Under the pieces are notes generated by a model. That model searched no databases. It was given only the letters and a program-made list of their open reading frames with translations, and had not been told where the DNA came from. A stretch of DNA of 64,000 nt from Isurus oxyrinchus (lineage: Eukaryota): positions 35,154,001 through 35,218,000 of the forward strand of contig JANJGN010000026.1 of NCBI GenBank assembly GCA_026770705.1. The letters run 5' to 3'. Each line of letters starts with the position of its first letter. The stretch's first letter is position 1. The position numbers and the translations under genes are program-made. Below, in pieces: positions 5,996 to 48,222 of this stretch.

Positions 5996-6458
5996 TGTCT
6001 GAAAGCGCAGTAATAGACGGCAGCATCAGTCAGCTGCAGACCCGAGATGGTTAAGCTGATGAATTTAGCGGCGGTCAGGAGCCCTGCAGAGAAGCGACTT
6101 CTCGCAAATTCTGCCTTTCTTTCAATGTCAACGGTATCCTTCAACAATACAAACTGGGGCTCTGTGTCTGGGTGTTGTCGGTACCAGTGTAACATATAGC
6201 TTCTCCTTGTAGTATCATAGTTACAGTTTAAAGTCACCTCTTCTCCTTCTGTCTTGACATCTGACGAGAGTGACTGAGTGACAGAGTCCCCATGAGTCCC
6301 GTCTGGAAAAAAAATTATGAAAACAAAGGTTAAGACGACAGCTGATTGAAATCTGATTGAAACCATGCCTGGAAAATGAGATAAATATGAAATGTATTCC
6401 CTTCACGATTACCTGTCAGAAATGCTGCCCACACAACCCAGATGCTGAATAGCCGCAT
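5996..6458 (-). CDS. TCR alpha/delta V segment, apparently functional (leader 6458-6413, V exon 6302-5996)
   Basis: Leader MRLFSIWVVWAAFLT|GTAA (phase 1). V exon DGTHGDSVTQSLSSDVKTEGEEVTLNCNY...WYRQHP...LTISGLQLTDAAVYYCAFRH has Cys23/Trp41/Cys104, is open, and is followed by a 23-RSS. Confidence 0.95.
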
Positions 6459-8714
6459 TGTCGCTGTCCGCCCTGTCAATGGGCTGCTCGATATTTAAAG
6501 ACATCCTTTCTAATCCCCGCCCTCAATTATCCGTTGTCGTGTCCCAGGATGTTTACACCTCACTTCCTGGGTTCTCTGTGGTGCGGCGAGACTGGCAGGC
6601 TTTGAGAGAGCAGACAGTAACTTCAAGCGCCCTGACCTGGATTACACTCACTATCCTTACAGAGGAAATGGATCCGGATTTAGAGAGCAGTGTTGGGGAT
6701 GCAATCCTTCCTGATCCGCTGGAGTCCAACTGGACGTTATCAAGATGGAGATAGAACAGTATAATGTTTCCAGGATTTCCGATGATGCAGATTTATGCTG
6801 GACATTAAGCTATCAGGAGGTTGAAAACGGTGTGGGGTGGTTGGGTGTCATTGCACGAAAGTGGTAGACAGGAACATATTTCGAAAAGGTTATTCTCCTT
6901 GCCAAGAAGAATAGGGGAAATGAAGGACTGCTTCTCTTTTTGAAATGGTGAAATCTATTACATGTCAGTGTTAAATGTTTTAACTCAATTCTCCGGGGCT
7001 CCCTCTCTCTTCTTCCTCAAGAGTTCCCTTACACATGCCCAGATGATACTCCTCCCTCACTCTCACTGACCATAATTACAACATGTTCATTATTCCCTGT
7101 GTGTGTGAAAGATATCTCGATATTGCATTTTGAGCTCTTATATGTTTTATCAATGTTCTCCAGTTTTATTTCAAAACTTCCATTTAGAATAATGTTGTAG
7201 GCTATGTTATCACACAGACACTGCCTGATACGACTGCATTGAGGCACTGGGATGTGATGGTGATTGAAACAATTTTTAATTCGTTCTTCAGAAGTGAACA
7301 CAGCCGGCATGGCCAAGACTAAGCTCGCATTGCGAAATGTCATTGAGACGGTGATAGTAAGTCTCCTTGTCTGTGCTGTGGATACACACACGGTCCTATG
7401 CTTCTGTAGAGCCTTGATTCAAATGAGTGGTGTGCGAGGAAATTTCCGGGCGCAGTAAAGAAGCAATCTCATCGTTGTCAATTTGCAGTCACATGTGGGC
7501 CGGACCACGTAAAAGTGACTGATATCCTTTTCTGAAGCAGCAGTGAACCAGGTGCGGTTTTACAACAATGTGATACTCCCATGACCTTGGTTCGCTTTGA
7601 TCTTCAGAGTATTAGTGCTCTGTATTACGCTCAACAGCAGCAATCTCACTATTCTACCACTTCGCATTTTGCTCAGCTGACTGTTGCAGGACACAAGGAC
7701 TAGGGTCTGTCCCCTGGGTCTGGACCTTTCAAATGAATCAGCATCCGAATGCTTTGATATCAGCCAAGCATGTCGCAAGAAATCATTACAAATTGTACAT
7801 GTATTAAATCTGACTCGTCTTGGCCCAGCAATAGCTTCTGTTGTTTGTTCCCTCTGCCTGTCCCGCATTGCCTGCTCTGATATCAGGAATATTTTTGCCG
7901 GTGTTCCTTTTTGGCATCGTCTGGATGAGCAGTCCAGTGGGACGGGTAAATGCATCACTTCACCGAACGAGGACATCCTGGAGAGTTCCAGAGTCAGGAA
8001 TTATTCTGCAGAACTGTGCAGCGCCGGTCTTCATTATTATTTCACTTCTCACTATGTTTTGCTGCCGAATAGAAATCTACTCTCCCACTGACTGAAGTAA
8101 TGTGGATATTATAGTTTGTAATCGGGTGCTGATGGTGGTGGGTCTAACTCATTGCCTATTCACCCTCCTTCCCAACGTGTTTTGAATCTGATGTACTTTT
8201 TTAACACGTGCGCATCTGATCTACTCATTCTGAGGTTGATTTCGGGATCGGGGTCATGGAGATTCGCTCATACTGCCCCTGCCTTCAAGGATTAACACGG
8301 AAGAAGCGGGTGTAGCTTTAGCTTGTACCCATAATAATGTTTATGTCAACAGGTATTGTTTCCATTGGTATCGGCCACAAACCGAAACCCAACCCAAGTT
8401 TACCATGTTGAAATTTACTGGCGGTTATGAAGAGAAAACAGATTTTGAGGGGAAAATGTTTTTCTGCAGACCTCAACAGCTTGGAGAAATTGTTCACTTC
8501 GCCCATCCCGAGTGTGCAGCTGACCGACATTACAGATTGAAAGTGCTCACTGAGACTCTCAGCAACATCCCCGTCATGAAACTGCCCTCGCCTTGTAGAG
8601 TACGTGCTCTATCAGTTCACATCAATTGCAACAGTGCTTAGCTGTGAAAACCATGCCGTCTTCTTAAGTTCAATTTCAATTACCAGCCCCGTCTTGTCTT
8701 TGAACAGCGACCAA

Positions 8715-9500: not shown

Positions 9501-10559
9501 TAATAACCCGCTTTCTCTCTGCTTGCTTTGGAAACGTTTACAGCGAGTCGCCTCTCGAAGGCAGTCGCAGTTCACAGTATAAAAACAAAGAATTATGGCC
9601 ATCCTCATCGGATCGAGAAGCATCGGCACATAGCGAATCAAAAATAAGGTTTCATGTCCGTCACATTTCAGCTGAACTCAGTCTGAGGAGCTGCTGATTT
9701 CTGGTGAAAGGTCACAGACTGGAACCTCCACTCTGTTTCTGGTTGCATTGCATTTTCTGTTTGCGTTTCGAATTTGGTTAACTTTCTGCTGGGAGACACA
9801 AGAGAGGAGGGGGAAATATCACCTGAAGGACAATCACATGCCCATTCTTTTAGACAACTATTTGGTTACAATTTGGGACGAGAGAAAATATGCCTACGTT
9901 GGGGACACGCCAGTTTAAGGACGGATTTTACTGTATAATTATACTAGTGTTCTTTAAGAATCATCAGACAAAGGCATAAGTAAACACTCAGGATATCTCT
10001 CAGTTCCCTGGGACACAATCAGACAATGAAGCTCGCCACGTAGCAAAGACTGCACTGAACAACTACCCACTCAGTCCGACAGTAACTGCTGTGACTGTCA
10101 GTATCTCTGATGAAAGACCCTCTCTAATGGGATTTATAGGACATCCCCCGGCAGCCCTGCCTGTCTCCCCCATTGGGGCTGAGGAAGGGGCAGAGGGGCG
10201 AATTTCCAAACACAAACCCTATCCAGGTCAGTTCCCCCCCCAACCCCCAAACCTTGTCTCCTCCTCCTTTCACCTACTGAGTGATATTCTGAGTGATGAG
10301 ATCAGACGGTGTAGGAGGAATTGGGAAAACTATATTTGACGAGTCAGCACTCGTGTTGAAATGCTGTTAACCAGTTAAGGCATTCGCTACTTTTTATTGG
10401 AAATGAATTACAAGAGGTACTTCCCCTTCCCCACCAACCCACCACCCACTCCCATCCCCCACCACTTCCGTTATAGCTTTCCTTACAGCAGTTTCTTAAT
10501 TTAACAGATTGCAACAATAAACATATCTGCTATTCGAAGAGATTGTTACTGAGGATATA

Positions 10560-11047
10560 ATGAGGCTCATGCCGCATCGTCATCTGGTTATATTGTCGCT
10601 GGTGTTTGGTAGGTGCAGCCATATCATTTTATCCGTTTGCAGTAATGCAATGTTAATAGACTTTTCAAATCAGTATTGCATTCAGCTTTTCCTTACGTTT
10701 AATTTCAGGTGTGATTCAGGCAGATTCTGTGTCCTAACCTCATACCACACTGAATATTACTGAAGGAGGTAGTATGAAAATAGACTGTAGCTACACAACA
10801 AGTCACGGTAATCCAGATCTGTACTCGTACAGACAGCACAAGAACCAGGCTCCTCCTTTCATTTTGAATCGAGATATAACTAATAAAAGCGATGCAGATT
10901 TTGCCAAAGGGAAATTCGAGGCCGGCCAGACTGACGAAGGAAAGGAGTTTCCTTTAACGATCACTCAAGCGGAAATCCAGGTCATCGCCGTATATTTCTG
11001 CGTGCTGAGCAGTTGGTTTAAAACACATCTTTCGCTGTACAAAAACC
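10560..11047 (+). pseudogene. TCR alpha/delta V pseudogene
   Basis: Leader 10560-10608 MRLMPHRHLVILSLVF|GTAGGT. V exon from 10709 has TAA at 10735-10737 and Trp41 replaced by Ser (TCG), ending YFCVLS. Heptamer lost; nonamer ACAAAAACC at 11039-11047. Confidence 0.92.
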
Positions 11048-12519
11048 CCAGTGATGAACTGCCAGCTCAAGGAAACCCGCCGCCGTGGTTAAGTGCTATT
11101 CGTGGCTCAGTGTAATTGTTCCATCTCACCACCCTATTTCCTCTAGTCATAAATTTGTGTGTTCAAGACCCACTCCAGACACCCGAGCACATAAACCAAT
11201 GCTGACACTTCTACTGCCAATATGAAGGGAGCATTGCAGTGTCCGTGGTCCTATTTTTCAGATGAGCTGCTAAATGGAGGCTCAATTTAACGTGGAGGAT
11301 CCATTCCGAGGAGGGTCATTTATTGTGTAAAAGAGCGGGGCAGCTCTTCCATAAATTTAAGCCTCAAACGGCATCACTGAAACAGATGATCACATTGTTC
11401 TTTGTGGGTGCTTGCTGTGCGCATTTTGACTATTTACTACATTACAATAGTGACTGCAATTCATATTTACTTCATTCTTGCTGCGAGACAGGCTGGTTGA
11501 GCTCAGCAGCCCTTTGCTTTCTGTAATTGTTCGTAGGGAACGATGTGTGCAAATTGTGGACCTGCACACATCATATTCGCATGGAAGAATAATAAGACTA
11601 AGTTCAGTTTATCGGAGTGCATGCATACATTTCCTGATACATTTACAGCTTTTGCTGTCTTCTTAATGAAGCATTTAGAAGTGCGGTGTGATTAAATTAA
11701 ATCTCGCTGACGCTTTCACTGAATCATCCGTCACTCATGTTCATACCAAAATTCCCCAATAGCGCAGCATGTTGTCCGCATTTAGTGGACATTCCTCATC
11801 ACTGACAAACCGAGTTAGAGCCAAATATGATTTGTCATAAATTACAGTTGCTGAGATAGTGTGCTAATATCTGCATGGATAGTACATACCGATGGAATCG
11901 AATGAAAATAAGCAGCGAGAAGCAAGCAAAATAAGCTGATGAAACCCAGCAGGCAACATATTTGAAAAATATCACGTTACTTTTTAAATCATTTCATTTT
12001 CAAACCCCAAGCTATCTGCTACGATGTTCTTTAAACGTAACTGAATCTAACCATATTACAGGAAATGAAGTGATGCGCGGTAACCTTGAAAGTGGAACAA
12101 TCGGTGCAAACACGAGCAGAAATCTTTCCTGTTAAGATTCAATTCACAGCTGGGTTTCAAATGCCAGGGCGCAGTAAAGATCAAAAACAAAAAGTTTCCA
12201 CAGAAAAATAAGTGCGAGGGCCTCAAAACATTTTGGCTGCACCGAAAAAGATTATTTTAGGAAAACAGAAAAGAAAATATGTTTTTGCGAAGATTTATGC
12301 TTCTGAATGTCTGGCTGTCCAGTTTTGAAAAAAGAACAAAGAAACCCGGGTTAACTACAAAACCGAATTATTTTGGAACAATATTGGAATTGTAAATGTC
12401 GTGTATGAATACTTAATTTTTCTATTCTTTCTCTATCTCTCTCCCTCTCTCTCTTCTCTGTCCTTTCTCTACTTCATTCTCTCTGCAAGTAAATTTCACT
12501 CTACATTGTCAAGGAGATG

Positions 12520-12745
12520 CCGAGGGCAGGCACAGCACGGGTTATTTTCCAGAGTCAATCTCCCTCTATTCTGCCCCTATAAAACACTCCCAGGACAGGT
12601 ACAGCACAGGATAGATACCGAATAAAGTTCTTTCTACACTGTCCCTGTAAAACACTCCCAGATTTGATGCAACTCTGTTAGAGCCAGAGTAAGTCCTGCT
12701 TTACAACTTCCCATCAAACACTTCTGGGACAGATGAAGCATGGAA
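12520..12745 (-). repeat. Degenerate minisatellite, paralog of 46030-46380
   Basis: Units such as aaacactcccaggacaggtacagcacaggatagatac are the reverse complement of the units at 46030-46380. Confidence 0.65.
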
Positions 12746-14320
12746 TATATTTCAGTGCATTCTTAAAATGGTAATGAACTTTTAAACCTTTTGAATATTT
12801 AGTTTCCAAATTAAATTGTGTTTTTTTAGAAATAAGGAAGTAAATTGCATTTTTCTAGCTCCTTTTGCGATCTCATGGTGTCCTAAAGTATGTTGCACCA
12901 TTATATCCAATGGAATACTTGGGAAGTTATACTGCAATACAAGGAAACGGACCAGAAAATGATGCTGACAGTGGGATCCAACAAAGATAAATGTGATAAT
13001 AAACAGTTATTCTGATATTTGATATGATTACGGGCTAACTATTGGAACAAGGATAATTCCCATGTTGGAAATGTTATGCCATCGGAAAGGACAGGCAAAG
13101 ACTCGCTTTAAATTCATATGCAAGAAATGATATGCCCGAAACTGAAGCTCTTCCTATAATGTTAGACTGTATTTTGTGCTGAAATCTGTAATGATGTTAA
13201 TCAGTAATGAAAGTGAAAATTCTACTACTGGAAAACATGGCGAGCACACAGTTTCTCCAGCCTGGAGCTCAACAGATTAGGGATCTGTTATTAGTCATTA
13301 GGCTAAATATTAATTCAGAAAATGTAATAGATTTATGCTGTGAGAAACATATGAATGCATTCGCGGATTGTTGCCTTATCTCAGCCTCAAATCAACAAAT
13401 CAATTCCCAGGCATATCCTCACACATTTCTGAAACATAAATAAGCAAATCATTCACATGATCCACAATTCGTTGGGAGATCAAAGAACATAGCCACATTC
13501 AGGAAGGATACGAAGAATTTTGTTCTTTCGGGTGACATATTCCGTTACTTGCAAGTGTCTCGATGATTTCTCCTCCTGTTCCATATTCAAGTAGATAGTA
13601 TAAGCAAAGGCTGCATAGTTAATGTTATTACCCTTTTGTTACGGTTAAAAGGTCTCTTCAGGTGGCGCTCAGAGCAATTACAAAGGGAAGTTGTTCGTCG
13701 GATTGCAACTAACAATGTTTCTGCCAGTTCTGTCTCTACAATTTCCGATTGATAACAGGGGCGGCTTGTAACCACTGCACCCTCTGGTAGGAAATCTAAG
13801 AATTTTACACAGTTTGAACAATGAGCAGAATGCTAATTTATCCATGGGACAATTTCAAGCAACCACACTTTCTGAAACGGACTTCAAAAAATTCAACTGT
13901 GTAACAACGGAGGAAATATGAGAAATATTAAAGGAACGGGCATTTCACCTTATTTAAGTTTCTCCTCAATGATGACATTATCTGATCTTTACATTGATGC
14001 ATCGCACTCGTTAATGTTTGCTTTCTTCCACTTATGATTGCATTGTTTCCTAACTTTTTGTCCTCTTCCCTTTTTCGCTTTCTGGTTTCCTCTTATTCAT
14101 TCTGGCTTGTGTGCTAACTTTTCCTTTTTTTCTCGCTATGTTTCCAACTCTCTTCATTTCTGACTCTGTTCAAACTTACACTTTGACTCTGTTCAAACTT
14201 ACACTTCTTGATTTTATTTTACTTTCTCATCTCATTAATCCTGCCCTCGGATCTTTCTAAAAGCGCCACTCGAAAGACCGATCCTTGAAACACAGCGGAA
14301 CTGCTCACACACTCGGTCTA

Positions 14321-14640
14321 GGTTTCTGTACGAGCTCAACATTTGATCGTTAGGCTGTCACCTTATGGAGCACAGATCGGTGGCAGCGTCTATAACCTGA
14401 GCGTCCCTCAGTCATGGGAAAGCGTTTGTTGCCCCCCTCGATTGAAGCAGTGATCATCTCGTGTTGATCAGTCCTTCTTGAGGCCATCACCAGATGCTGA
14501 TGGGGTGGCGGTGGTTGGGCTGGGGGGGAGGTGGAAGGCGGTGGGCGATGGACAGATTCCGGAGCTGTCTGCACCAACGCGCGATGTCAGATGCAATTAT
14601 GATGATATGATATGATTCCCATTTCACTAACAACCATCCG
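14321..14640 (-). pseudogene. Degenerate TCR V pseudogene (paralog of 44220-44513)
   Basis: Reverse complement ...WCRQ...QHLVMASRRTDQHEMITASIEGGNK...AQVIDAATDLC; nonamer ACAGAAACC at 14329-14321; frameshifts. Confidence 0.7.
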
Positions 14641-14891
14641 CTGATGGAGCTGCATCACCTCATCTTCACTGATCACCTCCGTGCTGATCAGAGTTGAAAA
14701 CAGCAGAAATACTCAGCAAATCCGAAGCTTCATCACAACACATGCAATACAGGCTGAAGCAATTCTCCAGGGGGTCAGGTTAAAATCAGGAGATGGACAT
14801 TTTATTTTGAAGACTTAACAAGGAGCCACTCAGAGGCGCCTTCCTATCGACCTAACGAAAGAAAATGAGTCATGGAGCTTACCCACTAGAA

Positions 14892-15531
14892 GTTTCGCAC
14901 TGACACAGCTCACGCTGCCACTGAGCTCACACCAGGCTGCCCATACTCAGTGTTTCACACTGACACAGCTCACGCTGCCTCTTAGCTCACACCAGGCTGC
15001 CCATACTCAGTGTTTCACACTGACACAGCTCACGCTGCCTCTCAGCTCACACCAGGCTGCCCATACTCAGTGTTTCGCACTGACACAGCTCACGCTGCCT
15101 CTTAGCTCACGCCAGGCTGCCCATACTCAATGTTTCACACTGACACAGCTCACGCTGTCTCTGGGCTCACACCAGGCTGCCCATACTCAGTGTTTCACAC
15201 TGACACAGCTCACGCTGCCTCTGGGCTCACACCAAGCCGCCCAGACTCAGTGTTTCACACTGACACAGCTCACACTGCCTCTTAGCTCACGCCAGGCTGC
15301 CCATACTCAGTGTTTCACACTGACACAGCTCACGCTGCCTCTGGGCTCACACCAGGCTGCCCATAATCAGTGTTTCACACTGACACAGCTCACGCTGCCT
15401 CTGAGCTCACACCAGGCTGCCCATACTCTGTTTCACACTGACACAATTCATGCTGCCTCTGAGCTCACACCAAGCCGCCCAGACTCAGTGTTTCACACTG
15501 ACATCAGCTCACACTGTCTCTGAGTTCACAC
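14892..15531. repeat. 60-bp tandem minisatellite, ~10.5 copies
   Basis: Unit tttcacactgacacagctcacgctgcctctgagctcacaccaggctgcccatactcagtg repeats in register over successive 60-nt lines. Confidence 0.97.
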
Positions 15532-16026
15532 TAGATGGCCCACTTTCAATATTTCTCATTGAATCACGCTGATGTATGGTGGTGCATACTGATAATTGCA
15601 TGGTTCAATCATTCACGGGAATTCCTGCCAAGCTGCAGCCCTCAAGTTAGTTACAAATTAGAACAGATATTGCCTCCTTACAAGTATAGATCTCCTAAAT
15701 CTCATCTTCAACTAAGCATCCAAGGATTCTCGAGTATTTTCCTCCCGCATTCTGGCTGAGCCTTTATTCCACACTGTGTTCAATCTCATTGTGACAACAG
15801 GAATGTCCAAACATCTCATTTTATAGTTTGAGCCCGTGTGCTTCTCCACATGGATTGCAATGTGACCTTATCTTTCCATATTTACAACACACCAAGAATA
15901 AAAGAAACAATGGCAGAAAGTATTTTTATATTTTTGCATTTTTTAAGTCAATTTTCTTCAGTAAAGTTTATGAAAACTGTTGTGAGTCTGGAACTCGCCC
16001 CGACTCAGAACCCAACACAGTCTCCC

Positions 16027-16041
16027 ACTGCCCTCTGGTGG
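16027..16041 (-). promoter_or_regulatory. CTCF-like site
   Basis: Reverse complement CCACCAGAGGGCAGT. Confidence 0.7.
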
Positions 16042-16250
16042 TGGTGACATGGAACTACAAGGTAAGTCTTCACAGAATTTGTTTGCCCTCCGGGCTCATG
16101 ATTACGTTCAACAATTTCCGATTCTAAATTCTTCCCCAGTTGTTTTTTTAAAGAAGTTTTTGGACAGTGGTGGTGCATCTGATTTTCACAATAAACCTCC
16201 TCCAGACCAAGACACTGCCTTTTATCTTTCCTATTGGAACATATTTTTGA

Positions 16251-16540
16251 GATCTGAGCCATGAAGATTCTGTTATTCAGCCACTATCCGCAAGAGTTAA
16301 GACAAAAGTAGAAGAAGTGAGCTTAAAATGTACCAATGATGCAACATGGGAAGGCAAATGGTACCAGCAATAAGCTGAAACACAGCCAATGCGTAGTTTT
16401 ATATGCTACCCGAACGATTCTGTAAAATAAAGCGGATTTTGCTAAAATGCACATATCAGAAGCGTGACAAAATTCATCACATTAATCATCACTGGACTGT
16501 ATCTAACTGACGCAACAGTTTACTCCTGCTCCCTGAGACT
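16251..16540 (+). pseudogene. TCR alpha/delta V pseudogene (family of the 5996 V)
   Basis: DLSHEDSVIQPLSARVKTKVEEVSLKC...WYQQ*AETQP...KFITLIITGLYLTDATVYSCSLRL; stop, frameshifts, degenerate RSS. Confidence 0.85.
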
Positions 16541-16784
16541 CACTGGGTTGGAAACAAGTTAAACACTCATACCGGTACACCGGTGTGTAGATTTGAAAAT
16601 CCACTTCAAAAACTCAATTACGAGGCGACCGGATGTGAAGACCATCACAACATAACTATTTAGAAAATCTAGCATGTTCCTATGTTCAATATTGATATCA
16701 GCTATGTTGGCTTTTCAGCAGAGCACATGACTCTGAGTCACCCAATTTCACTGAACCTCGTTTGAAAATATTTACACGCGCTCG

Positions 16785-16798
16785 CCACCAGAGGGCAG
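16785..16798 (+). promoter_or_regulatory. CTCF-like site
   Basis: CCACCAGAGGGCAG. Confidence 0.7.
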
Positions 16799-17032
16799 TA
16801 GGGGCTGGGTTATATAAAAAGTGAAGTCAGACAGCATCTGCGGAGAGATAAAAAAATGCGCTTCTAATAGAACTTTATCAGTACTCGAACTGAGATAATT
16901 GACAGAGACCCAAGTGCAGTAGCAACACTCGTTGGTTTGACTGTCCGAACGGGCTACAGATTGAGGACGGCTTTTTCCATGCTTTCGTGATATTGAACGT
17001 TGCTGGCCGAACCAGTATTACCTGCCCATCCC

Positions 17033-17111
17033 TATTCACAGTTTAAAGTAACTGTGTCACCGGCAGCAGGGGTTTGTACAGGGGGATTCCAGGACACCAG
17101 GGAATTGGAAT
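17033..17111 (-). pseudogene. Truncated 5' end of a second supporting TCR-delta V
   Basis: Acceptor ttatcctcCAG then DSNSLVSWNPPVQTPAAGDTVTLNCE*, aligning with the start of the 23501 V; breaks off after Cys23. Confidence 0.88.
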
Positions 17112-18286
17112 CTGGAGGATAAAAAAAATAATAATCTTTTCGTTTAGCCAGTGTTTGTCCGGGGGAATTTGCCAATCGCGTGAATAGCTCTCTTTGTGCA
17201 GTAATTTTCTTTGTTTGAAGCCGGTGCGAAACGTATTCACGGTTATTAAATTAGGATCAAGTCAGGAATGAGGTGATTTTTTTTTTCCACAGCGAATTCT
17301 TCCAATCAGGGCTTCACTGCCTGATTGGAATAGATTCTATTGAACATTTCAAACTGATAATGGATCTGTGCTGGATATGGAGAAAATTCTTGGGTAGTGG
17401 GATTAATTGAATTATACTTTTAAAGATGCAGCACCTACACGATGGGTCGAATATCAAACTTGCATGCTGGATAATTCTATGAATTATACTACATTCCCGT
17501 TTCTATTTTCCCTGTTGAGAGACAAACCAGATGCAACATCTTATGATCAGTGAGGCTATCAGTTTTTTAAAAAAACATGTTTGTCGCAGAGGAACACATC
17601 TGCGCATTGCAAGATCCAACAAAAATGGGCATCATTAGCACCGATTTTGCCAAACCGAGAGTTAACATCAGTGGTCAAATGTCAATCATTTACTGCGGTT
17701 TTAAACTGTCCGGGAGCTTCTATCTGTCCTTTTCTCTATTTCTCTATGTTCTACCAATAGGCTCCAATTTTCTGCAGTTCAGTTCATTTGGAATATTCAC
17801 AATGAATTTCATTTTATTTATATTATTTCATGTTTCCTTTATTTCACATTTACGTTCTGCTGTTTGCGGTTCTTCCAATCGTGGTAACTTGCCCCAAACT
17901 CTCTCAGCTGTCGGTTGGTTTCAGTCTGTTCAGTTTCCGCAGTGGTTTTACTGTTACTCACTGGGAACTGCCTCTTTCGGCTCTCTGACAATTTCGATTC
18001 TTTCCGCACATTGAGCGATTATCTCCCGGGTTCTCTGGGCGGAGTTTTCTCTCAATTTTACATTACAGAGGAATAATAATGAAAAAGAAGAATGGGCCAT
18101 TCGGCCTGTGGATATAATCCATTACAATTTAACCCCGCCCGAAATCTAACTGATTATTTCCATCCAGCTCCCTGTGTTGGTCTGTTCCATTCTCCGTCCT
18201 GTATTTTCAAGTGTTCCAATAAATACATCAATTCTATCTCCAACTATTCCTGCCACAGCAGGTTCCTCATTCTGACTTGTCTTTGT
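17033..18286 (-). repeat. Left arm of ~1.3-kb inverted repeat (partner 22270-23579)
   Basis: Continuous reverse-complement alignment, e.g. 17160-17192 vs 23420-23455 and 18090-18286 vs 22270-22470. Confidence 0.9.
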
Positions 18287-19283
18287 GTATTCCCAAACTG
18301 GAAATCAAACATTACTGAAATAAAACACCTGTTTACGTATAACGCACCGCAGGGCTGGTGCAGGAAGCATTTGGTTAAATGACAGGGAGAGTTTGCATTC
18401 ATTCACGTGTGCTCTGCGCCTGGGCAGGTCCTTGGACGATTTTCTGCAATTGCTTCGCATTGAGCTGTTTTCTTGGCAGCTTTGTTTGTCGTGGTTTTTA
18501 ATTGCCTTCCACTCGCAGGAGCAGGAAGGACCCAAGTCAACCTCAGCCAGAACGCGGACAGAAACCATGTTATTGGCATTATTCCAAACCAGACACTAGC
18601 CACCTAGCCAGCGGAGCTAACCAGCTGCTACTTAGCCTTGGTGTATGTTGTCTACGTCTGCCAGGATATTAGTAATGTAACTGCAGCTCATCATATTGTA
18701 ACCTGAAGTCCAGTCGCTGGGCCATGGAAGATGCCAGACCTGAGGCGCCGGCCTTCAGGTCAGACATCTAACTGATGCCCCACCAGCCCATTCAAGGCGA
18801 TGCTAAACAATGTCCAGAATATTAGAATAAGAGCAGTACGCGGGGATTCACCTGGTGCCCTGTGCCCACATTTTACCTTTAACAAACACCACCCAAAACA
18901 AACACATACACCGACCTTCCAGTTCATTCCAGTGGGGAAATGAAGGCGGCAGCACAACTAGCAGAAAGAAAAGCTCCCCTTCCCCACCCCTGTACACCAG
19001 AGTATTGTGGGAGGGGCTTTCACATCCGGATCACAATCCAAATGTGGAGTCGGCAAATTGCAGCCTCCTTTTATAAACCTGTCTCTTATTCACACAACAC
19101 TTAGCCAGCGACCTGGGAACCGTCCGGCCCATCAATGATCTCAGTGGAACTGCCCCGTGCAAATCAATTTCGATCCCCCTAAAGTATTTCAGGCTAGCTC
19201 TGAGGCCCGGTCTCCCAGTGCAGTCCAGGACTGCAGTCTCCAGCTCCCCGTCATATAAACCCTCAGCTCCAGGCAGAAGAACG

Positions 19284-19762
19284 ATGGGAATCCTCCTTGT
19301 TTTCACGCTGTGTATCTGTTTACCCCGTGAGTAGCGATCAAACAAACCGACATTGTGTGGATTTAACATAAAGCTGCTCGAGTCCATCCCAACTACAGAC
19401 ACTGTCTGGGGTTTAACCCCGCACTGTGGTTCTCTGATGGTCCATTAAACTCTCTCTGTTTAATTTCCAGGCTTTTTCAGTCAGTCAGTGACACAGACCC
19501 CGGCAGCGGTGACCAGGAAGGAGTGTCGTCAGCCTCTCACCATCACCTGTGTTTTCTCCGGTGCTTTGCGGGATTATTTCCAAACGGGATATTTCTTCAG
19601 ACAAACCCAGACCGGGACAGAGTGGGAGCGGATCTCCAGCGGGGGGAGATTTGTTGTGTCGGTGAATAAAGCACAAAAGACATTTTCGCTGGAAATTCAG
19701 GAATTGAGAGTTGAAGACACCGCCACCTATTACTGTAAAGCTTAGTACCGGTATTACAGATA
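19284..19762 (+). pseudogene. NAR-TCR V (IgNAR-like V); leader 19284-19326, V exon 19471-19762; in-frame TAG at 19743-19745
   Basis: MGILLVFTLCICLP|RFFSQSVTQTPAAVTRKECRQPLTITCVF...FFRQTQTGTEWERISSGGRFVVSVNKAQKTFSLEIQELRVEDTATYYCKA*YRYYR. NAR hallmarks: deleted CDR2 region, GGRF..SVNK..K.FSL, YCKA. Extra FR1 Cys. TATA-like ATATAAA near 19253. Confidence 0.9.
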
Positions 19763-19800
19763 CACAATGATGGGTCTCAGCTTCCCGCGATACAAAAACT
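19763..19800 (+). promoter_or_regulatory. 22/23-class RSS of the NAR-TCR V
   Basis: CACAATG + 22 nt + ACAAAAACT. Confidence 0.9.
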
Positions 19801-20097
19801 CTCACTGTAGATTATCACAGAAACAAATGAAAGAGCGGAGTTAAGCTGCAGTTAAACCCCCACAGTTCCGCGTCACACTGTCTATTTTATAATGAGACTG
19901 GATTATTGCTGTTAACATCTTGAGTGTGTGTGGATGGTGATGTCTTTCCCGGGATTGGTGTCAGTGAATGGGGATTGGGAATGATTGATCCCAGTTAGAA
20001 ACCCCTAACGCCAGATGTGATCCTGGTCTAACAGCTGGAACCGGGAACCGCTGCCCCCGCTGTTTATGATGTCCCCAAATCTTCGCAAGTACCCGAG

Positions 20098-20172
20098 GGA
20101 TTTTATAATGACTTGTAACTCTATGTGGATGGGGTACCTGGAATCACAGTGGGAGAGACCTTAACAAATACC
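20098..20172 (+). other. NAR-TCR D segment (coding ~20126-20144) flanked by 12-RSSs
   Basis: 5' side GGATTTTAT-12-CTCTATG (degenerate heptamer); D TGGATGGGGTACCTGGAAT, open in all three frames; 3' side CACAGTG-12-ACAAATACC. Confidence 0.85.
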
Positions 20173-20478
20173 TCTGCCCAATCACAATATAAATTCTCCG
20201 CGCCCGGATAGTGAATTGTCGGGTTGATGTTATTATCTCTGGAATCTGATTACAATTCATTGTAATTTCCATTATTCAGTTATCGTTCTTTGTTGTTCTG
20301 CTCGGTTTTTGTGAAGCTATTATCTCGTTCCCGGACCATTTACTCTGAGCTCAGTGCCTTAAAAAGAAGAGTTTGAACCGACAGAGACTTTGAAAATTGT
20401 TTATTTATTTAAATCAGTTGAATAATTGGGCAGTTTCTACTGTCTGATGATGATTTCCCGGCAGGTTAAGGTGTCGGT

Positions 20479-20564
20479 GGTTGTTGTACCGGGGACACTG
20501 AGAGCGGAGTCACTGTGGAAATATTATGTGGAAGGATCCGGGACAGTGTTGACTGATACAGCCG
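20479..20564 (+). other. NAR-TCR J segment (coding 20518-20564) with 5' 23-RSS
   Basis: GGTTGTTGT-23-CACTGTG; translation KYYVEGSGTVLTDTA (NAR-type GxGT motif without F/W); phase-1 donor G|GTAAGT. Confidence 0.92.
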
Positions 20565-21479
20565 GTAAGTGACTCCATACTCCGCCGGGTTACAGCCTGT
20601 CTCGGGTAATGTTCACCGTCAGTTTATTATTGATATCAGTGGTGTTTGGGGGAGATGTTAGAGTTGACGGAATCTGGACCATTATTAGTTCAACGGGCAC
20701 ATCGGGGATACCATCAACACCACGGACTCTCACACTCTGAATCGCTTTTAATGAGCGCAGATTGTCAACACTCAGGACTCCACACCCCGTATTAACTGTG
20801 ACCGAGGCAGATCTATCTGTCCCTTAGAGCCCGGGAGCGAGGTCCCAGAGCTCTCTCCTGGGCAGCAGATTGCAGTCTGAGCCGCAAATGTGAATGAGGT
20901 ACCGGGTGAACAAATTCAATACAACTGCGGCCAGTTCGGATACCTGCAGCGGCTCGTTCCAGACCTGACCCGGAAGAAAAACGGGAGAGTGACACAAGGG
21001 GCCTCAGATATATGAGATGCTGATGTGGGTCCAGGTTGAATTCTATATTTGGACAATGAGTAACGAAAATTAATGACATTATCTGTGCCATTTCTTTCAA
21101 TTGCCTTTATAGAACCAATCACTTTCCTCCTTTTCCGTCCTTAAATTGAAATGTGAAAGTTTGGAAATGCAGACACTTCTCTATATTGAATGTAGATGTT
21201 TGAGATATGGGATTGCTGTAATTTATCTGTATCTCTGATTCCTGTGAATTGAAACAGCACAGTGCAGTGAGAAAGTGAGGATGATATATTAATCTTATAA
21301 AGGAGAAAAGGGACATAAGGAAACATTTATAAACAAGGAGAATGCTCATTTAGAACCAGCAAGAAAAAAATAATCGAAAGGGAGAGAACGATTGGATGAT
21401 TTCTGGGCGATTTTCAAAGTAAATTCCGACTCGGTGGTAGGTGAGGTTTATGGAGGGAAGGGCTGAAATAGACTCCAGT

Positions 21480-22020
21480 CCGGAATGCTGTGTAAAGTTT
21501 TGGTCCCCTTACAGAAGGGAGATCAATCGTCATTGGAATGAGTGCAACAAAGGTTCATCAGACTGATTCGTGAGATGAAGGGATTGCCCAATGGGATGAG
21601 ATTTAGTCGTCTCGGCCTATATTTCCTAGAGTTTAGAAGAATGAGAGGTGATCTCATGAAAACATATAATATTCTGAAGGGACTTGATAGGGCAGATTCT
21701 GGGTCAGTGTCTCCCCAGACTGAGGAGTATATAACTCGGGGTCACAGCTTCAGAATAAAGAGTCATCGATTAGAACTGAGAAGGAAAATAAATCTTCAAT
21801 AGAACCACTGTTGTTAATCTGTGGCATTCTGTAACTCAGAGAGCGGTAGGTGTTCATAATCTGTATGCATTCTAGACAACATTCGATAGGTTTTCGGACA
21901 CTAAAGGGATCAGGGATATGGGGTGAGTGCGGGAATGTGACGTTGCGGTTGTAAATCAGCCAGGATATTACTGAATGGCTGAGCAGGTTTGAAAGGTGAT
22001 ATGGTGGCTCCTGCTTCTAT
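21480..22020 (+). mobile_element. CR1 LINE 3' fragment
   Basis: QQRFIRLIREMKGL..RFSRLGLYFLEFRRMRGDLMKTYNILKGLDR...TRGHSFRI, followed by a CR1 3' UTR. Confidence 0.85.
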
Positions 22021-22269
22021 TGATTGGATTCTCTGCTTTGGTTTCTTACACTCCTGAGGGAAGAAACAATCAGCAACAATCCACATCCCTCTGGGAAGAT
22101 TGAACATTCTGGTTCTCTTTTTTCTGGAATACAGAACCACAAGGAGAATCCATATAAATCTTTCAATATTGAACGGGTTTAATCTGGACAAGTTGAGTCT
22201 AAAGCAATAGCTGTCAACACATGACAGTAGCTAACAGAACAGATCAAACATTTAAGACAAATGAATTTA

Positions 22270-23579
22270 AACAAAGGCAGGTCAGAATGTGGAACTTGCT
22301 GCCTCAGGGAGAGGTTGGAGATAGTATTGATATATTTATTGGACCACTTGAAAATAGAGGAGGGAGAATGGAACAGACCAACACAGGGAGCTGGATGTAA
22401 ATGGTCAATTAGATTTCTGGTGGGGTCAAGCGGGAATTGATTATATGCACAGGCTGAATGGTCCATGCCTTTTCCGCATTCTTCTTCCTCGATAATGTAA
22501 AATTGAGAGAAAACTCCGGCCAGAGAACCTGGGACAGAATCAGTTAACTTGCGGAAAGAATTGAAATTGTCAGAGAGCCGGAAGAGGCAGTTCCCAGTGA
22601 GTAACAGTAAAACCACTGCGGAAACTGAACAGACTAAACCCAGCCGACAAGTGAGAGAGTTTGGGACAAGTTCCCACGGTTGCAAAAAAGGCAACAGCAT
22701 ATAATAAATGTGAAATAAAGGGAATGTGAAATTAAAGAAATAAAATGAAATTAATTGCACCTTTTTTATATTCAGCTGAACTGGAGAAAATAGGACCCTA
22801 TTGACAGAGCATAATGAAATAGAGCAAAAGGCAGATAGAAATTCCTGAGCAGTTATAAACCGCAGTAGGTGATTGACCTTTCACCACGAGAGATGCTCAC
22901 TCTTGGTTTGGCCCAATCGGTGCGGATGAACCCCATCAGTTTATGTTGGATTTTGCTATGCGCAGTGATGCCACACAGCTGTGTCCCTCTCTGACAAACA
23001 TGGTTTTTTTGGAAACTGGTTGCCTCGCTGAACATAAAATACTCCCTCGTGTTTGTTTCTCACCAAGGAAAATAGAAACAGGAATGTAATATAATTCATA
23101 GAATTATCCAGCACGGAAGGATGATATTCGGCCAATTGTGTTGGCGCTGACCCTTTAAAAGTGCAATACAAATGTTCCCACGGCCCATGAATTTACTCTA
23201 GAGCTCTATATTTTTATTTACATTTCCAATACAGACCCATTATCCGTTTGAAAGTCACTATTGAATCTATCCCCTACACCAATTCAGGCAGTGCAGTCCT
23301 GATCGGAAGAACTCGCGACGTAAAATAAAACATCACCTCATCCCCCATTTAGTCATATTTTCATAACAGTGAACATGGTTCAGATAGGCTTCCAGCAAGT
23401 TAAATTACTGCAAAACGCAGAGCTATTCGCGCGATTGACAGATTCTCCTGGACAAACAGTGGCTGAACAAAAAGATAGTGCTCATTTTCTTATCCTACAG
23501 ATTCCAGTTCCATAATTTCCTGGATTTTGCCTCTACAAACGTCTGCTGTCAGTGACACCGTTACTTTAAACTGTGAATA
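22270..23579 (+). repeat. Right arm of ~1.3-kb inverted repeat (partner 17033-18286)
   Basis: See left arm. Confidence 0.9.
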
Positions 23580-23800
23580 TTCAGGGTTCTGCACAGTACA
23601 CTGGTACCGTCAGTCCCCAGGACAGGCTCCTGAATATTTTCTTCAGAGACGCACTTCAGGAGAGGAGAATAAAGAAAACGCTGCCGGGGGGAGAATTTTT
23701 GCTTCTATCGATTCTAACGAGAAAATCAGCTGGTTAACGATCTCCAAACTACAACTAAGCGACTCCGCTGTTTATTACTGTGAACTGAGTCGGTGCACAG
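23501..23800 (+). CDS. Leaderless supporting TCR-delta V (second domain of NAR-TCR)
   Basis: Acceptor tatcctaCAG at 23500, in frame with the NAR J donor: DSSSIISWILPLQTSAVSDTVTLNCEYSGFCTVHWYRQSPGQAPEYFL...LTISKLQLSDSAVYYCELSRCT. Non-canonical CDR1 Cys. No leader exon seen upstream. Perfect 23-RSS at 23801-23839. Confidence 0.93.
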
Positions 23801-24016
23801 CACAGTGATATAGAACATGGAGGGAGCTGTACAAAAACCTCAACATAGTGGGGATTAGAGATACTCAGTGATGCAGAGCACGGAGAGAGCTGTACAAAAA
23901 CCATGAACATGTTGGAATTACAGACACACAGTGACACAGAGCACTGAAAGAGCTATACAAAAACCTGAACATGGTGGGATTACAGACATAGTGATACAAG
24001 GCACAGAAAGAGTTCA
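23801..24016 (+). repeat. Tandem array of 23-RSSs, 63-bp period
   Basis: CACAGTG(23801)-23-ACAAAAACC; CTCAGTG(23864)-23-ACAAAAACC; CACAGTG(23927)-23-ACAAAAACC; CATAGTG(23987) with similar spacer but no nonamer. Confidence 0.95.
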
Positions 24017-40602: not shown

Positions 40603-41052
40603 AGTCTCAGTGCGCAGTAATACACCGCGGAGTCTGCCAGTTCTGTTTCAGACACTTTAAGCGGGACGGTGCCGATCGAATCGTTGAGCTCCGCTGAAAA
40701 ACGGTCCCCAGGAAATCTCTCTTTGTTCTCGGTGTATTTAGTCCTCAGCAGCAGATGCTCCATGGATCCGCTGGGATGCTGACGATACCAGAATAAGCTG
40801 AGATCGTTGCTGTATGTAGCTGTATAATTACAGAACAACCGAACATTGTCTCCTTCACTCACTGTGACTGCAGGCGGTGCCTGTGAAAAAACGGAATCTC
40901 CTCGACAATGTCCTGTAAGAGCCAAGAGTGACATTAAATTAAACGATATCATTTCACTTTGTTCATGCGCTTTAATAGGATCATCGCCCTGGACAATAAC
41001 CTGAGAAATGAATCGGAGGAGCTAAACACAGATATATACCCCACCACTCAGT
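40603..41052 (-). CDS. TCR alpha/delta V with intact V exon (40912-40603) but defective own leader (41052-41001)
   Basis: GHCRGDSVFSQAPPAVTVSEGDNVRLFCNY...LFWYRQHPSG...LKVSETELADSAVYYCALRL is open. RSS CACAGAG-23-ACAAAAACT (40602-40564). The leader-like exon reads TEWWGIYLCLAPPIHFS with no ATG. Confidence 0.88.
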
Positions 41053-41929: not shown

Positions 41930-42200
41930 ACCCTTCCTCCGAGAAGGACAAGGGCGGCAGACACCGCCGGCTGCAAGTCCCCCTCCAAGCCCCACACAAG
42001 TATAACTGAAAACTATAACGGCCGCCCCTTCACTGTCGCTGGATCGAAATGCTGGAACTCCCTCCCTAACAGCACTGTGGACGTACCTACACCACATGGA
42101 TTGCAGCGGTTCAAGAAGAAAGCTCACCATAGACTTCTCAAGAGGGGTGGGGAGGAAATGCTGGTCCGGCTAGCGACTTTCAATACCAGTACAGCATGGA
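41930..42200 (+). mobile_element. CR1/L2-superfamily LINE 3' end
   Basis: cccctccaagcc...cttcactgtcgctgg...ggaactccctccctaacagcactgtgg..tacctacaccacatgg; same family as 54200-55350. Confidence 0.75.
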
Positions 42201-42619
42201 AAAATGTCCTCCTCCTGTCACCCGCTCGGATAATCAATCCAACGACTAATGATGCACCCTACTGCGCTCGTGTTTCTGTCAATTAGTCCGTGTCAATCAT
42301 CCCAGTACGAGAACTGATAAAGTTCTGCAAGACGCGTATTGTTTATGTATCCACAGATACTGACTTACTTACTTTTTTGCATAATCATTCTGTCAGCCGC
42401 CCTCTGGTGACAAGAGCGTATAAACTTTTACAAAGCAGTTTCAGAGATAGCAGTTGGCTCAGGGTCATGTGCTTTGCTGAAAGGCAGACATAATTGATAT
42501 CACCATTGAACATCGGAACATGATAATTTTTCTAAATGATTATGCTGTGATGGTCTTCGCATCCAGTCGCCTTGTAACTGAATTCTTGAAGTGGAGTTTC
42601 ACATCCACAAACTGCCGGG

Positions 42620-42910
42620 TGTACATGTATGAAGGTTTAACTTGTTTCCAACACGGTGACCCTCAGGGCGCAGGAATAAATTGCAGTTAGATACAGCCCA
42701 GTGATGGCAAATGAATTTTGTCAAGCTGCCGACATTTGCAGACCAATGCATTTTAGCAAAATCTGCTTTATTTTTCAAAACCTTTGAAGCATTACATAAA
42801 CTAAGCATTGGCTGTGTTTCAGCTTGTTGTTGGTACCAGCTGCCGCGTCTGTTTCTGTCTTAAGCCTTACGAATAGTGCCTGAGCGACAATATCTCCATG
42901 GCTCAGATAT
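42620..42910 (-). pseudogene. TCR V pseudogene (inverted paralog of 16251-16540)
   Basis: LSHGDIVAQALFVRLKTETD/WYQQQAETQP...KNKADFAK...CALR; Cys23 region deleted; heptamer CACCGTG (42658-42652), nonamer degenerate. Confidence 0.82.
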
Positions 42911-43148
42911 CAGAAATTTGTAGTAAACAAGGAAAGATCAAAAACACGGGAGTCTTGGCCTGGAGGAGGGTAACTTATGAAAAGCAGATACGCAGCCACC
43001 AGATACGGTCAATAAATAAATAAATGAATAAAACTTATGAAAGAAAAAGAATCGAAGGAGAGTTTAGAATCGGAAATTGTTGAATGTTATTTTGAGCCCG
43101 GAAGGCGAATAATTCTGTAAAGTTGCACCTTGCAGTTCCATGTCAACG

Positions 43149-43162
43149 CCACTAGAGGGCAG
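43149..43162 (+). promoter_or_regulatory. CTCF-like site
   Basis: CCACTAGAGGGCAG. Confidence 0.7.
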
Positions 43163-43715
43163 TGTGAGACAGTGTTGATTTCGGGGTCGGGTTGCATTCT
43201 GGTCTCACAACAGTGTTCAGAAATTTTACTGAAGAAAATTGACGAAAAGAACAAATTCAGAAACAGAAACATTATTTTTTTCAATGTTTATATAACTCTT
43301 GGTAGGTTGTATCTATTTGAAAAAAAAAGAAAATGCATCCACGCACATGGGTTCAAACGGTAAAATATTTAGACTAATATCAGGATATATTTGTTGTCAC
43401 AATGAGATGCATCACAGTGTGGAACAAACTTTCAGCCAGAATGCGGGAGGAAAATACCCTGGAATCCTTTGATGCTTAGTTGAAGGCGAGATTAGGGCCT
43501 TTATGGATAGGAGAGCGATACGAGGAAGAAGGCAACAGCAGTTCGAATTTGTAACTACCTTGAGAACTGCAGCTTGGCGGGAATTTACGTGAATTATTGC
43601 ACCCATGCAATTGTCAGTGTGCACCAGCAGAAAGCAGTGTGAATCACTGAGAAATTTTGAATGTGGACCGTCCGGTGTGAGCTCGGAGACAGCGTGAGCT
43701 GTGTCAGTGTGAAAC

Positions 43716-44020
43716 CTTATCTTTACCTTGCTTGCCCTGCTCTCAACCCTTAATTAGCACATTCCTTAGATAATATCATCACCTTCAACACCTCTTTGTC
43801 TTTCTGTCTGTGACATCTTTTGGTTATCTCCACTTATCACTGGCCGTTTATCCAGCTCTACTTGCCTGCCCCCCCACCCCCTTAAACCAGCTTATATTTC
43901 ACCTCTCTTCTATTTTTACTTAGTTCAGTTGAGGAGTCAATCGGACTCGAAACATTAACTGTGCTCCTCTCCGCAGATGCTGCAAGACCTGCTGAGTTTT
44001 TCCAGGTATTTTTGTTTTTG
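43716..44020 (+). mobile_element. Penelope-like element terminal fragment
   Basis: ...tcgaaacattaactgtgctcctctccgcagatgctgcaagacctgctgagtttttccagg...; absent from the paralogous position near 14880. Confidence 0.6.
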
Positions 44021-44219
44021 ACTCAGTTTCTGTCGTTAGTTCGATAGGAATGCGCCTCTGAGTTGCTCGTTGTGAGTTCTTCAGACGATAATATCCATCC
44101 CCTGGTTTTAACCTGACCCTCCGGACAATTTTCTCAACCGGCATTTCATGTGGTCTGATAATACTTCGGATTTACAGAGTGCTTCTGCTGTTTTCCAGCA
44201 GAAGCGGGAATCATATCCA

Positions 44220-44513
44220 TGAAGTTCTCCATCACCATTGCATTTGACATCGTGCGTTGGTGCAGACGGATTCCGAATCAGCCCCCTCCCCCAGCCCACC
44301 CCACGCCCCCCTACCACCGACCAACCCCTCTCTCCACGCGCCCAGCATCTATTGATGGCCACAAGAGGAACTGACCAACATGAGATGATCACTGCTTCAA
44401 CCGAGGGAGGCAACAAACTCCGTGCCGTGACTGGGAGTCGCTCGGGTTACAGACGCTGCTGCCTATCTCTGTGCCACAGTCTCACAGTTCAATGAAGAGC
44501 TGCTACAGAAACC
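44220..44513 (+). pseudogene. TCR V pseudogene retaining a 23-RSS
   Basis: FDIVRWCRRIPNQPP-[C-rich insert]-QHLLMATRGTDQHEMITAS...ARVTDAAAYLCA; CACAGTC(44475)-23-ACAGAAACC(44505-44513). Confidence 0.78.
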
Positions 44514-45037
44514 TGGACCAAGTGGGCGAACCACACCACTGTTATTCGATCATCGGCCTTTTGAGTGGTGCTTTTACAAAGATCCCAGGGTAGGGGCTAT
44601 GAAAACAAAACAAAAAATAAAATCTAGAATTGAAATACTTAAAGATAGTCAGAAATGAAGAGAATTGGACACAGAGTTGGAGAGAAAAAGAAAAAACTTA
44701 TCGCACAATCCAGAATGAGTGGGAGAAAAACAGAAAGCAAAACCGTGTTTAACCATTCGTGAAGAGGACAGAAAATTAGGAAACAATCGAACGATAAGAG
44801 GAAACAAGTAAAAATTAACGAGTGTGAAGCATAGAGGTAAAAATCAGATAAAATAATTATTGAAAAAAGCTTATATAAAGTAAAATGCCCTTTCCTTTAA
44901 CTTCACTCATATTTACTTGATAGTTACACAGTTGAATTTTTTGAAGTACGTCCCTGAAAAAGTGGTTGCTGGAAATTGTCCCATGGATAAACTTGCATTC
45001 GGCTCATTGTTCTAAAGGTGTAATATTCTTAGATTTC

Positions 45038-45051
45038 CCACCAGAGGGCGC
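45038..45051 (+). promoter_or_regulatory. CTCF-like site
   Basis: CCACCAGAGGGCGC. Confidence 0.75.
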
Positions 45052-46029
45052 AGTGGTTAGATGTTCCTCCCTGTTATCAAACTGAAATTAGAGAGGCAGA
45101 ACTGGCGGAAACACTGCCAGCTGCAATCCCGCCAACAACTTCCATTTGCAGTTACTCTTACGAGCACCTGAAGATGCCGATTTAATCTTAACAAAGGGGT
45201 AATATCAGTAAATATGCAGCGTTTGGTCTCGTCCTGCACCGCAGTGTTTATGCAATATTCTGAGATATGGGACAGGAAGAGAAAACATTGTGACACTAGC
45301 AAATAACGAAAAATGGCACCTGAAATAACAATCTCCTTTTTGTCCCGTCTCCCCAACTCCAACTGAATGTCGGTATCAACCTGTTACATTTTATGAATTA
45401 TATTTAGCCTAATGAACAATGACAGTCCTCTAATCTGTTGAGCTATAGACTGGGGAAAGGGTGTGCTCGCTATGCTTTGCATTAGTAGAGTTGTCACCTT
45501 CATCAAACCGAATGAACACGTCCCAGTTCACAAATTTCAGCACAAAATCCTGCCTAACATTTGAGGAAGAGCTGCAATTTCGGACATATCACTTTTTGGA
45601 TGTGAATTGAAACCGAGTCCTTTCCTGAACTATCTCATGGCATAACATTTCTAATTGCATTACTTTTGGAAGAACAGGGGGATTGTCCCTGGCGTATTGT
45701 TCCAATATTTAGCCTTAATCATATCTAATATCAGGTTAAATGTTTAATTTCACATTTCTCTTTGTTGGATCCTGTTGTAAGTATTATTTTCTGGTTCGTT
45801 CCCCTGTATTGCAACATTTTAACTTCAAAAGCATTCCAGTAGATAGAATGGTGCAAAGCATTTTGGTACATCATAAGAGCGAGTAACGTGCTAGAAAAAT
45901 GCAAGTTCTTTCATTCTAAATAAACATAATTTAAATTGGAAATTAAATAGTCAAAAGTTTAAAGCCCATTATAACTTTGAGAATGTCCTTTATTATAACC
46001 TATATTTCTGCCCTAGTGTGTTTATGGGA

Positions 46030-46380
46030 AATTATAAAGAAGGCTTTACTCTATATCTGACAGAGTTACATCAAATCTGGGAGTGTTTTACAGGGAAAGT
46101 ATAGAGGGAGATTTACCCTGTATCTAACAAAGTTGCATCAAAATTGGAGTGTTTTACAGGGGCAGGATGGAGAGAACATTGCTCTGTATCTAACAGTTGC
46201 GTCAAATCTGGGAGTGATTGACAGGCACATTATAGAGGGAGCTTTACTGTGGATCTAACCCCGTGCTGTACCTATTCTGAGAGCGTTTGATGGGGACAGT
46301 ATAGATGGAGCTTCACTCTGTATCTAACCCTGTGCTGTACCTGTCCTGGGATTTTTCTGACAGCGCAGAGGGAGCTTTAC
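46030..46380 (+). repeat. Degenerate minisatellite, ~53-66 bp units
   Basis: Recurring tagagggagctttactctgtatctaac...ctgggagtgttt units, about six copies. Confidence 0.8.
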
Positions 46381-47680: not shown

Positions 47681-48222
47681 GCACCGTGTGAGAGTTGGAG
47701 AAGTTTTGTAAAGCGGGGAGAACAGAATAAAATAGGGAGGATAAAATCCAGGAAATATTGTATCACATCATAAAGTAATTACAATGTAATACAAGGCAGT
47801 CAACATCTGTAAGTGACCGACACAGACGAGTCAACGCGTTCCTAAGTGATCTAAGGCCTTACAGGGACCAGTGACATTGCCGCTACCCCACCATCTCACG
47901 TAACTGCTAAAATAAAGCAGAAATTACGTACTCGCATCGCCGTGAAATTGACTACAGTGCCAGGGTCCAACAATGGTGATGAAAAATAATGAAAACTATT
48001 GAATAAAGCAGCAGATCAATTAAGGAAGCCTAAGAACTCTTTGTTACTCAGGTCACTTAGGAAGGCGTTGACTTGCCGGTGTCGGTCACTTACAGATTTT
48101 GACTGCCTTGTAGTACATTGTGATTACTTTATGACGTGAAGCAATATTTCCAGGAATATTGACCTCTCTATTTTATTCTGTTCTACCTGCTTTGCAAAAT
48201 CTCTCCAAATCTCACACGGAGC
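47681..48222. repeat. Local inverted repeat, arms ~47681-47856 and ~48045-48222
   Basis: acaaggcagtcaacatctgtaagtgaccgacac vs gtgtcggtcacttacagattttgactgccttgt, extending ~175 bp. Confidence 0.9.

Follow-up and report, generated by a model that had tools for sequence, protein, structure and literature searches.

The NAR-TCR, reportedly described by Criscitiello in 2006, is a doubly rearranging TCR-delta of cartilaginous fish. As presented in the parts of PMC1845163, PMC5931798 and PMC12227049 compared, it resembles the cassette analyzed here in its leader, its IgNAR-like V with a Cys in the a-b loop and without the Trp of WYRK, its own D and J, its leaderless supporting V-delta with a Cys in CDR1, and its position in a TCR-alpha/delta locus. 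The cassette lies in a window of 64,000 nt of the Isurus oxyrinchus genome (contig JANJGN010000026.1, here C26; positions 35,154,001–35,218,000). It differs from the described system in that its V contains a stop codon and one signal of its D lacks CAC. The surrounding locus differs as well: it holds at least 65 NAR V matches, which occur in both orientations and to either side of C-delta, most of its supporting Vs are followed by stacked RSSs, and some units are V-D- or V-D-J-joined. None of these features of the locus was found in the text compared from these three papers, although table S1 of PMC12227049, which gives NAR-TCR V coordinates in shark genomes, may bear on copy number.

The first V also resembles the V of IgNAR, the shark heavy-chain-only antibody, in its VNAR matches in PDB, its sister position in the tree and its 22-bp RSS spacer, but it is about 50% identical to the IgNAR-like Vs of the same genome, which have more D segments. 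The cassette does not have the layout of an IgNAR cluster, with several Ds and with constant exons behind the J: it has one D, and its J is followed by a TCR V exon. Marsupial TCR-mu, in the parts of PMC7615758 and PMC3457774 compared, is likewise a two-V TCR chain, and, as in its V-mu-j, sister cassettes of the one in the window have a pre-joined, invariant V exon behind a rearranging V-D-J. In the window's cassette a pre-joined exon is absent. The joined exon of the sister cassettes differs from that of TCR-mu in being of NAR type, in forming an extra domain that precedes a still rearranging supporting V, and in keeping a (dead) leader and intron, which counts against retrotransposition.

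Unless stated otherwise, the features of the window cassette are on the plus strand. The leader exon (19284–19326) encodes MGILLVFTLCICLP plus 1 nt and ends in a phase-1 GT donor. The IgNAR-like V exon (19471–19762) has a short CDR2 region, the a-b loop Cys (KEC) and FF instead of the WY motif, and it is followed by an RSS with a 22-bp spacer (19763–19800; CACAATG/ACAAAAACT). The D segment of 19 nt (20126–20144) has an intact 12-RSS on its 3′ side (20145–20172) and a damaged one on its 5′ side (20098–20125, minus strand). The J (20518–20564; KYYVEGSGTVLTDTA) is preceded by a 23-RSS (20479–20517, minus strand) and ends in a phase-1 donor. The initial annotation had described all of these parts, and the leader, the V with its 22-RSS and the J with its 23-RSS and donor were recovered where it had placed them; of the two 12-RSSs it had assigned to the D, the 3′ one stood and the 5′ one, with the heptamer CATAGAG in place of a CAC-starting one, did not. 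No second D was seen by eye between 20172 and the J; a nonamer at 20304 was considered as the mark of one and was rejected, as no heptamer lies at 12 or 23 bp. Upstream of the cassette, an inverted remnant of another (17033–18289, minus strand) comprises the intron and codons 1–25 of a supporting V and is 77% identical to 22268–23579.

The supporting TCR-delta V (23501–23800) is open as far as a perfect 23-RSS at 23801–23839, and has a Cys in a CDR1 that is two codons shorter than in most paralogues. Its acceptor AG is at 23499–23500, and the J donor reaches it in frame (G|AT = Asp), as had been proposed. No leader-like exon of normal quality was found in the 2.9-kb intron ahead of it: none of the eight ATG..GT candidates (0/8) combined a hydrophobic core with a good donor, whereas all three conventional Vs in the window have a leader. 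No good candidate for a leader exon splicing directly to 23501, which the initial annotation had named as refuting its proposal, was found among these eight. The layout is not due to chance, since the same order and spacing occur in dozens of paralogues.

The assignment to the NAR-TCR family was confirmed by the tree placement of both Vs and by the diagnostic residues. The best PDB matches of the first V were VNARs (E 1e-19). In a tree of 65 V domains, built from a subset of paralogues of our choice and with bootstrap values not fully settled, the first V fell inside a clade of 31 NAR-TCR-type Vs from its own genome and from other elasmobranchs (98/93). This clade was sister to nine IgNAR-like Vs of the same genome (99/99) and apart from TCR Vs, with which the supporting V grouped. 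A grouping of the first V with conventional TCR Vs, which had been put forward as evidence against the family assignment, was therefore not obtained. According to the part of PMC1845163 compared, the first V of NAR-TCR is diagnosed by a leader, the a-b loop Cys and the lack of the WYRK Trp, and the supporting V by its TCR type, the lack of a leader and the CDR1 Cys. All first-V diagnostics were found (MGILLVFTLCICLP leader, KEC, GYFFRQ), as were those of the supporting V (TCR-type, GFCTVHW in CDR1, no good leader candidate). The cassette has a D and a J of its own, the J donor matches the supporting V in frame, and D, J and C segments that appear to be those of TCR-delta lie on the same contig. 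It was also borne out that automated annotation easily misses such cassettes: as listed, none of the names of 56 homologous gene models is NAR-TCR (e.g., 'uncharacterized', 'DSCAM-like' and 'Ig gamma-1 heavy chain-like'; some names are shortened), and protein searches returned no protein under the name NAR-TCR.

The initial annotation had called the cassette complete, and here the sequence disagreed. The V reads YYCKA-stop in frame: a TAG at 19743–19745 starts 20 nt ahead of the heptamer, so that the V is not open up to its RSS. At the 5′ RSS of the D the nonamer is present and the heptamer at 12-bp spacing is CATAGAG (CATAGTG in the sisters); CACATAG, the one alternative that begins with CAC, would have a spacer of 14 bp. 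A usable 12-RSS is thus not found on both sides of the D. CAC is consistently needed for appreciable cleavage according to the part of PMC10536018 compared, which also gives the 12/23 rule; the RAG requirements applied here come from mammalian work. From these two lesions we infer that V-to-D joining is blocked in the window copy and that the cassette is dead. A D-to-J joint would still be possible, a direct V-to-J joint would break the 12/23 rule, and any joint of the V would need about 18 nt to be trimmed off its end to remove the stop. With the stop codon in the V and a 5′ D signal lacking CAC, the window copy is likely a pseudogene unable to make a two-V chain. Counting against the pseudogene call, no part other than these two is disrupted: leader, splice sites, V framework, J and supporting V remain open, and the supporting V has a perfect RSS.

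Both lesions were found in six copies (L001–L006, on contigs C26, C151 and C152), three of them on C26; some of the unplaced copies may be haplotypes. The copies are 98.4–98.7% identical, differing from the window copy at 20–25 of about 1,515 positions. Of the 29 NAR Vs on C26 that are unjoined, none outside the three copies of this clade has its V tail interrupted by a stop. Similarly, 21 of the 25 unjoined C26 cassettes in which a D was found have a CAC 5′ heptamer, and the clade accounts for three of the four exceptions. The presence of both lesions in all six copies indicates that they were inherited and that a pseudogene was duplicated. The lesions are older than the copying into at least six places, after which the copies drifted by 1–2%. 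Decay private to the window copy comprises the V heptamer CACAATG (CACAGTG in the five sister copies) and two amino-acid changes in the J (20533, 20556). Among the sisters, one has lost the supporting-V acceptor (TG) and another lacks a base of a nonamer. The dN/dS among the three C26 copies was 0.64, which is uninformative at 0–4 changes per pair.

That the stop and the altered heptamer are assembly errors is extremely improbable, since the six separately assembled copies share both despite their differences from the window copy; the short-read contigs over 19200–20700 (runs X1–X3 and X21) are fragments of many paralogues, too broken up to confirm either base, and no listed piece spans the TAG. 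Rescue of a complete working cassette, with the V end deeply trimmed and the shifted CACATAG heptamer used instead, would fit the intactness of the remaining parts, and a CAC-starting heptamer does lie 2 nt away. However, this heptamer has two mismatches besides its 14-bp spacer, and the trimming of about 18 nt is needed as well, so that two rare events would have to coincide in one cell, and we regard this reading as very unlikely.

That the NAR half is dead but the supporting V still serves in an ordinary delta chain with one V, the NAR leader being spliced straight to 23501 and the NAR V skipped, is somewhat less improbable, though still unlikely. The skip would be in frame because the donor of the leader and the acceptor of the supporting V share phase 1, and an open supporting V with a perfect RSS fits such a chain. 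Against it, the chain would carry an unpaired CDR1 Cys, the intact NAR V acceptor would compete for the leader, and two of five sister supporting Vs have acceptor or nonamer lesions. The two-codon CDR1 deletion of the supporting V is, moreover, common to copies without the canonical Cys. Taken together, the window cassette is a real NAR-TCR cassette, of a known kind, and likely a recently duplicated pseudogene. The architecture proposed by the initial annotation thus held for family and order of parts and failed for a complete working cassette, and the copy is one of dozens in the locus.

A working cassette would have its V (22), D (12/12) and J (23) joined in this order by RAG locally, and its supporting V (23) joined to D-delta (12/23) and J-delta (12); splicing of the NAR J onto the supporting V, in phase 1, would then stack two domains. 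A disulfide that links the a-b loop Cys to the Cys in CDR1 likely holds these in place, as established for the NAR-TCR family. The D (12/23), the Js with 12-RSSs and the C exon lie at 29.90–29.93 Mb of C26 on the minus strand, 5.25 Mb from the window's supporting V (35.18 Mb, plus strand). Since the latter is inverted relative to D-J-C-delta, it would join by inversion; it could still be cut and joined over this distance, but has no leader of its own. The C exon appears to be delta, judging from the D and its RSS types; the C used as query was taken from a model bearing the label 'TCR alpha-like'. A second D-J-C set on contig C242 is a haplotype or a duplicate.

Behind the window's supporting V there are three tandem 23-RSS units with a 63-bp period (23801–23988). 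The units at 23801 and 23927 have consensus heptamer and nonamer, and the one at 23864 has the heptamer CTCAGTG. The two additional units were absent from the initial annotation. A TGA lies in frame inside the first RSS, and joining at a later unit would therefore be non-productive in this copy. Among 52 supporting-V matches on C26, at least two RSS-like units were found in 40 (up to nine), one in 10 and none in two; each of the three conventional Vs in the window has a single RSS.

The search for Vs in the same genome gave at least 140 matches at 60% identity or more, with 150 of 603 candidates scored, and by our count at least 65 NAR-TCR V matches are on C26. A census of 60 C26 regions around matches and the window, parsed for V ends, gave 61 V ends: 29 unjoined, 13 V-D joined, 16 V-D-J joined and three without a recognisable RSS. 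Copies on C242 and unplaced contigs were counted with a second parser, which missed most joined exons. Eleven of the 29 unjoined cassettes passed all integrity tests, and so working copies exist; two more failed only through an acceptor misplaced by the parser.

The 16 V-D-J-joined exons on C26 keep the leader intron, and their junctions run from the end of a V through a short G-rich stretch into the start of a J, from which we infer RAG joining in the germ line. Their CDR3s are of the YKYGCGSVWKDG and YRYRCGSTVSKD types and recur in 4 of 65 proteins examined, gene models from Carcharodon (P0001, P0004, P0023) and Cetorhinus (P0015), which shows that they are inherited and not somatic. Eleven have an open frame, four Cys and phase-1 AG and GT sites; in 10 of the 11 the leader is unusable through a stop at codon 4, loss of ATG or loss of the donor. 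Each of the 11 is located 3.3–5.9 kb after another NAR unit and precedes a supporting V. All nine joined exons that follow the five units whose unjoined leader-V is intact are open; the five broken ones are all behind odd or broken units.

Four joined exons with a common leader stop at codon 4 gave a pooled dN/dS of 0.30 (simple Nei-Gojobori count, pairs non-independent), compared with 0.69 for the frameworks of 11 intact unjoined Vs. One joined pair differs at 12 of 79 synonymous vs. 7 of 247 non-synonymous sites (Fisher p 2e-4), with 1, 2 and 16 differences at codon positions 1, 2 and 3, and at 13/121 and 48/497 positions of flanking non-coding DNA; a second pair of the same leader-stop clade gave p 0.022. 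By its low dN/dS and codon-position pattern, this clade seems to have been under purifying selection after the death of its leader. The leaders of the exons with the codon-4 stop are nearly identical (0–2 of 45), which gene conversion could explain and which counts against this reading. Also counting against are the good leaders of models P0004, P0015 and P0023, real or borrowed by the gene predictor. For one joined cassette (L077), contigs of runs X21, X22, X24 and X6 showed no splice joints and its joined V exon had no depth from three runs guessed to be RNA, neither of which bears on expression; one DNA contig (second organism label) ran gap-free across the V-D boundary but covered about 23 nt of the J side, short of the required 31 nt.

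On this genomic evidence we tentatively propose, at somewhat less than even probability, that the locus encodes delta chains of three to five V domains, in which joined exons are fixed stalk domains. Such a chain would consist of a rearranging NAR V-D-J, one to three germline-joined, leader-dead NAR exons (345–348 nt, one of 336 nt, with phase 1 at both ends) and the supporting V. Judging from its position, the invariant CDR3 Cys of a joined exon might pair with the a-b loop Cys of the preceding domain, parallel to the CDR1 Cys of the supporting V in a two-V chain. In a weaker form, a joined exon may borrow the upstream leader and so be available, ready-made, as an invariant first domain. Germline-joined NAR-TCR exons or chains of more than two V domains were not described in the parts of the literature compared (PMC1845163, PMC12227049, PMC3457774, PMC6795676, PMC7615758, PMC5192425, PMC12698447, PMC5931798, PMC3149040 and PMC10536018); the original NAR-TCR work of Criscitiello 2006, Ott 2021 and Deiss 2019, which lies outside this comparison, could describe them.

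As a dead copy of a known receptor the window cassette itself matters little, beyond the caution that a tidy V-D-J layout can conceal a stop in the V tail. The main interest is the locus outside the window, with its pre-joined sister cassettes. If the joined NAR exons are indeed conserved and were kept open after the loss of their leaders, T-cell receptors of variable length would be assembled from fixed Ig spacers.

In the Isurus oxyrinchus genome, five regions of C26, the contig that carries the cassette of the window, contained a rearranging NAR unit followed by one to three open NAR exons with V, D and J fused in the germline and then by a supporting V (30.05-30.06, 31.15-31.16, 35.94-35.95, 37.89-37.91, and 38.75-38.77 Mb; L066-L073, L076-L077, and L079-L080). 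A usable leader was absent in eight of the nine open joined exons. In a Heterodontus gene model (P0002), the supporting V was preceded by two NAR V ends with identical CDR3s; this may be a gene-predictor artefact or a second example of tandem joined exons.

Besides, 13 NAR units on C26 had the D fused to the V, while the 3′ 12-RSS and the J remained unjoined (for example L082-L084, L093-L096, L102, L103, and L108). The YRYNIG type of these units was found in nine copies and was matched by a Carcharodon model (P0008). Three open NAR Vs with a leader lacked a recognisable RSS (C26 positions 29986967, 30013404, and 30036014; L086, L088, and L089); they had a J ~430 nt downstream and ended in KYTYKNFTM, a tail similar to that of a Cetorhinus model (P0007).

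Behind the supporting Vs, 23-RSS units were arranged in tandem (2-9 per array, period ~50-63 bp), both in the window (23801-23988) and for 40 of the 52 supporting-V matches that C26 contained, whereas a single RSS followed conventional Vs. Conventional TCR alpha/delta Vs in the window lay in both orientations: 5998-6297 and 40605-40904 (both minus strand) looked intact, and 49355-49642 and 51174-51401 (minus) and 8255-8461, 10717-11010, and 16257-16538 (plus) were broken or altered. A long inverted duplication in several pieces (10179-17036 versus 42140-50168; 72-82% identity) included V pseudogenes. A truncated supporting-V remnant retaining its upstream intron (17033-18289, minus) was inverted relative to the cassette, and a 60-bp unit was repeated in tandem at 14892-15531 (10.7 copies, 91% match).

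Two similar D-J-C-delta sets, either haplotypes or true duplicates, were found at C26 29.86-29.96 Mb and on contig C242 at 550-650 kb (L123-L142), both including a transmembrane exon as well as an open C exon; next to the C242 set, unjoined NAR cassettes were densely lined up. The five C26 regions with joined exons tentatively point to a delta chain with three to five V domains, in which these exons might serve as fixed internal domains.
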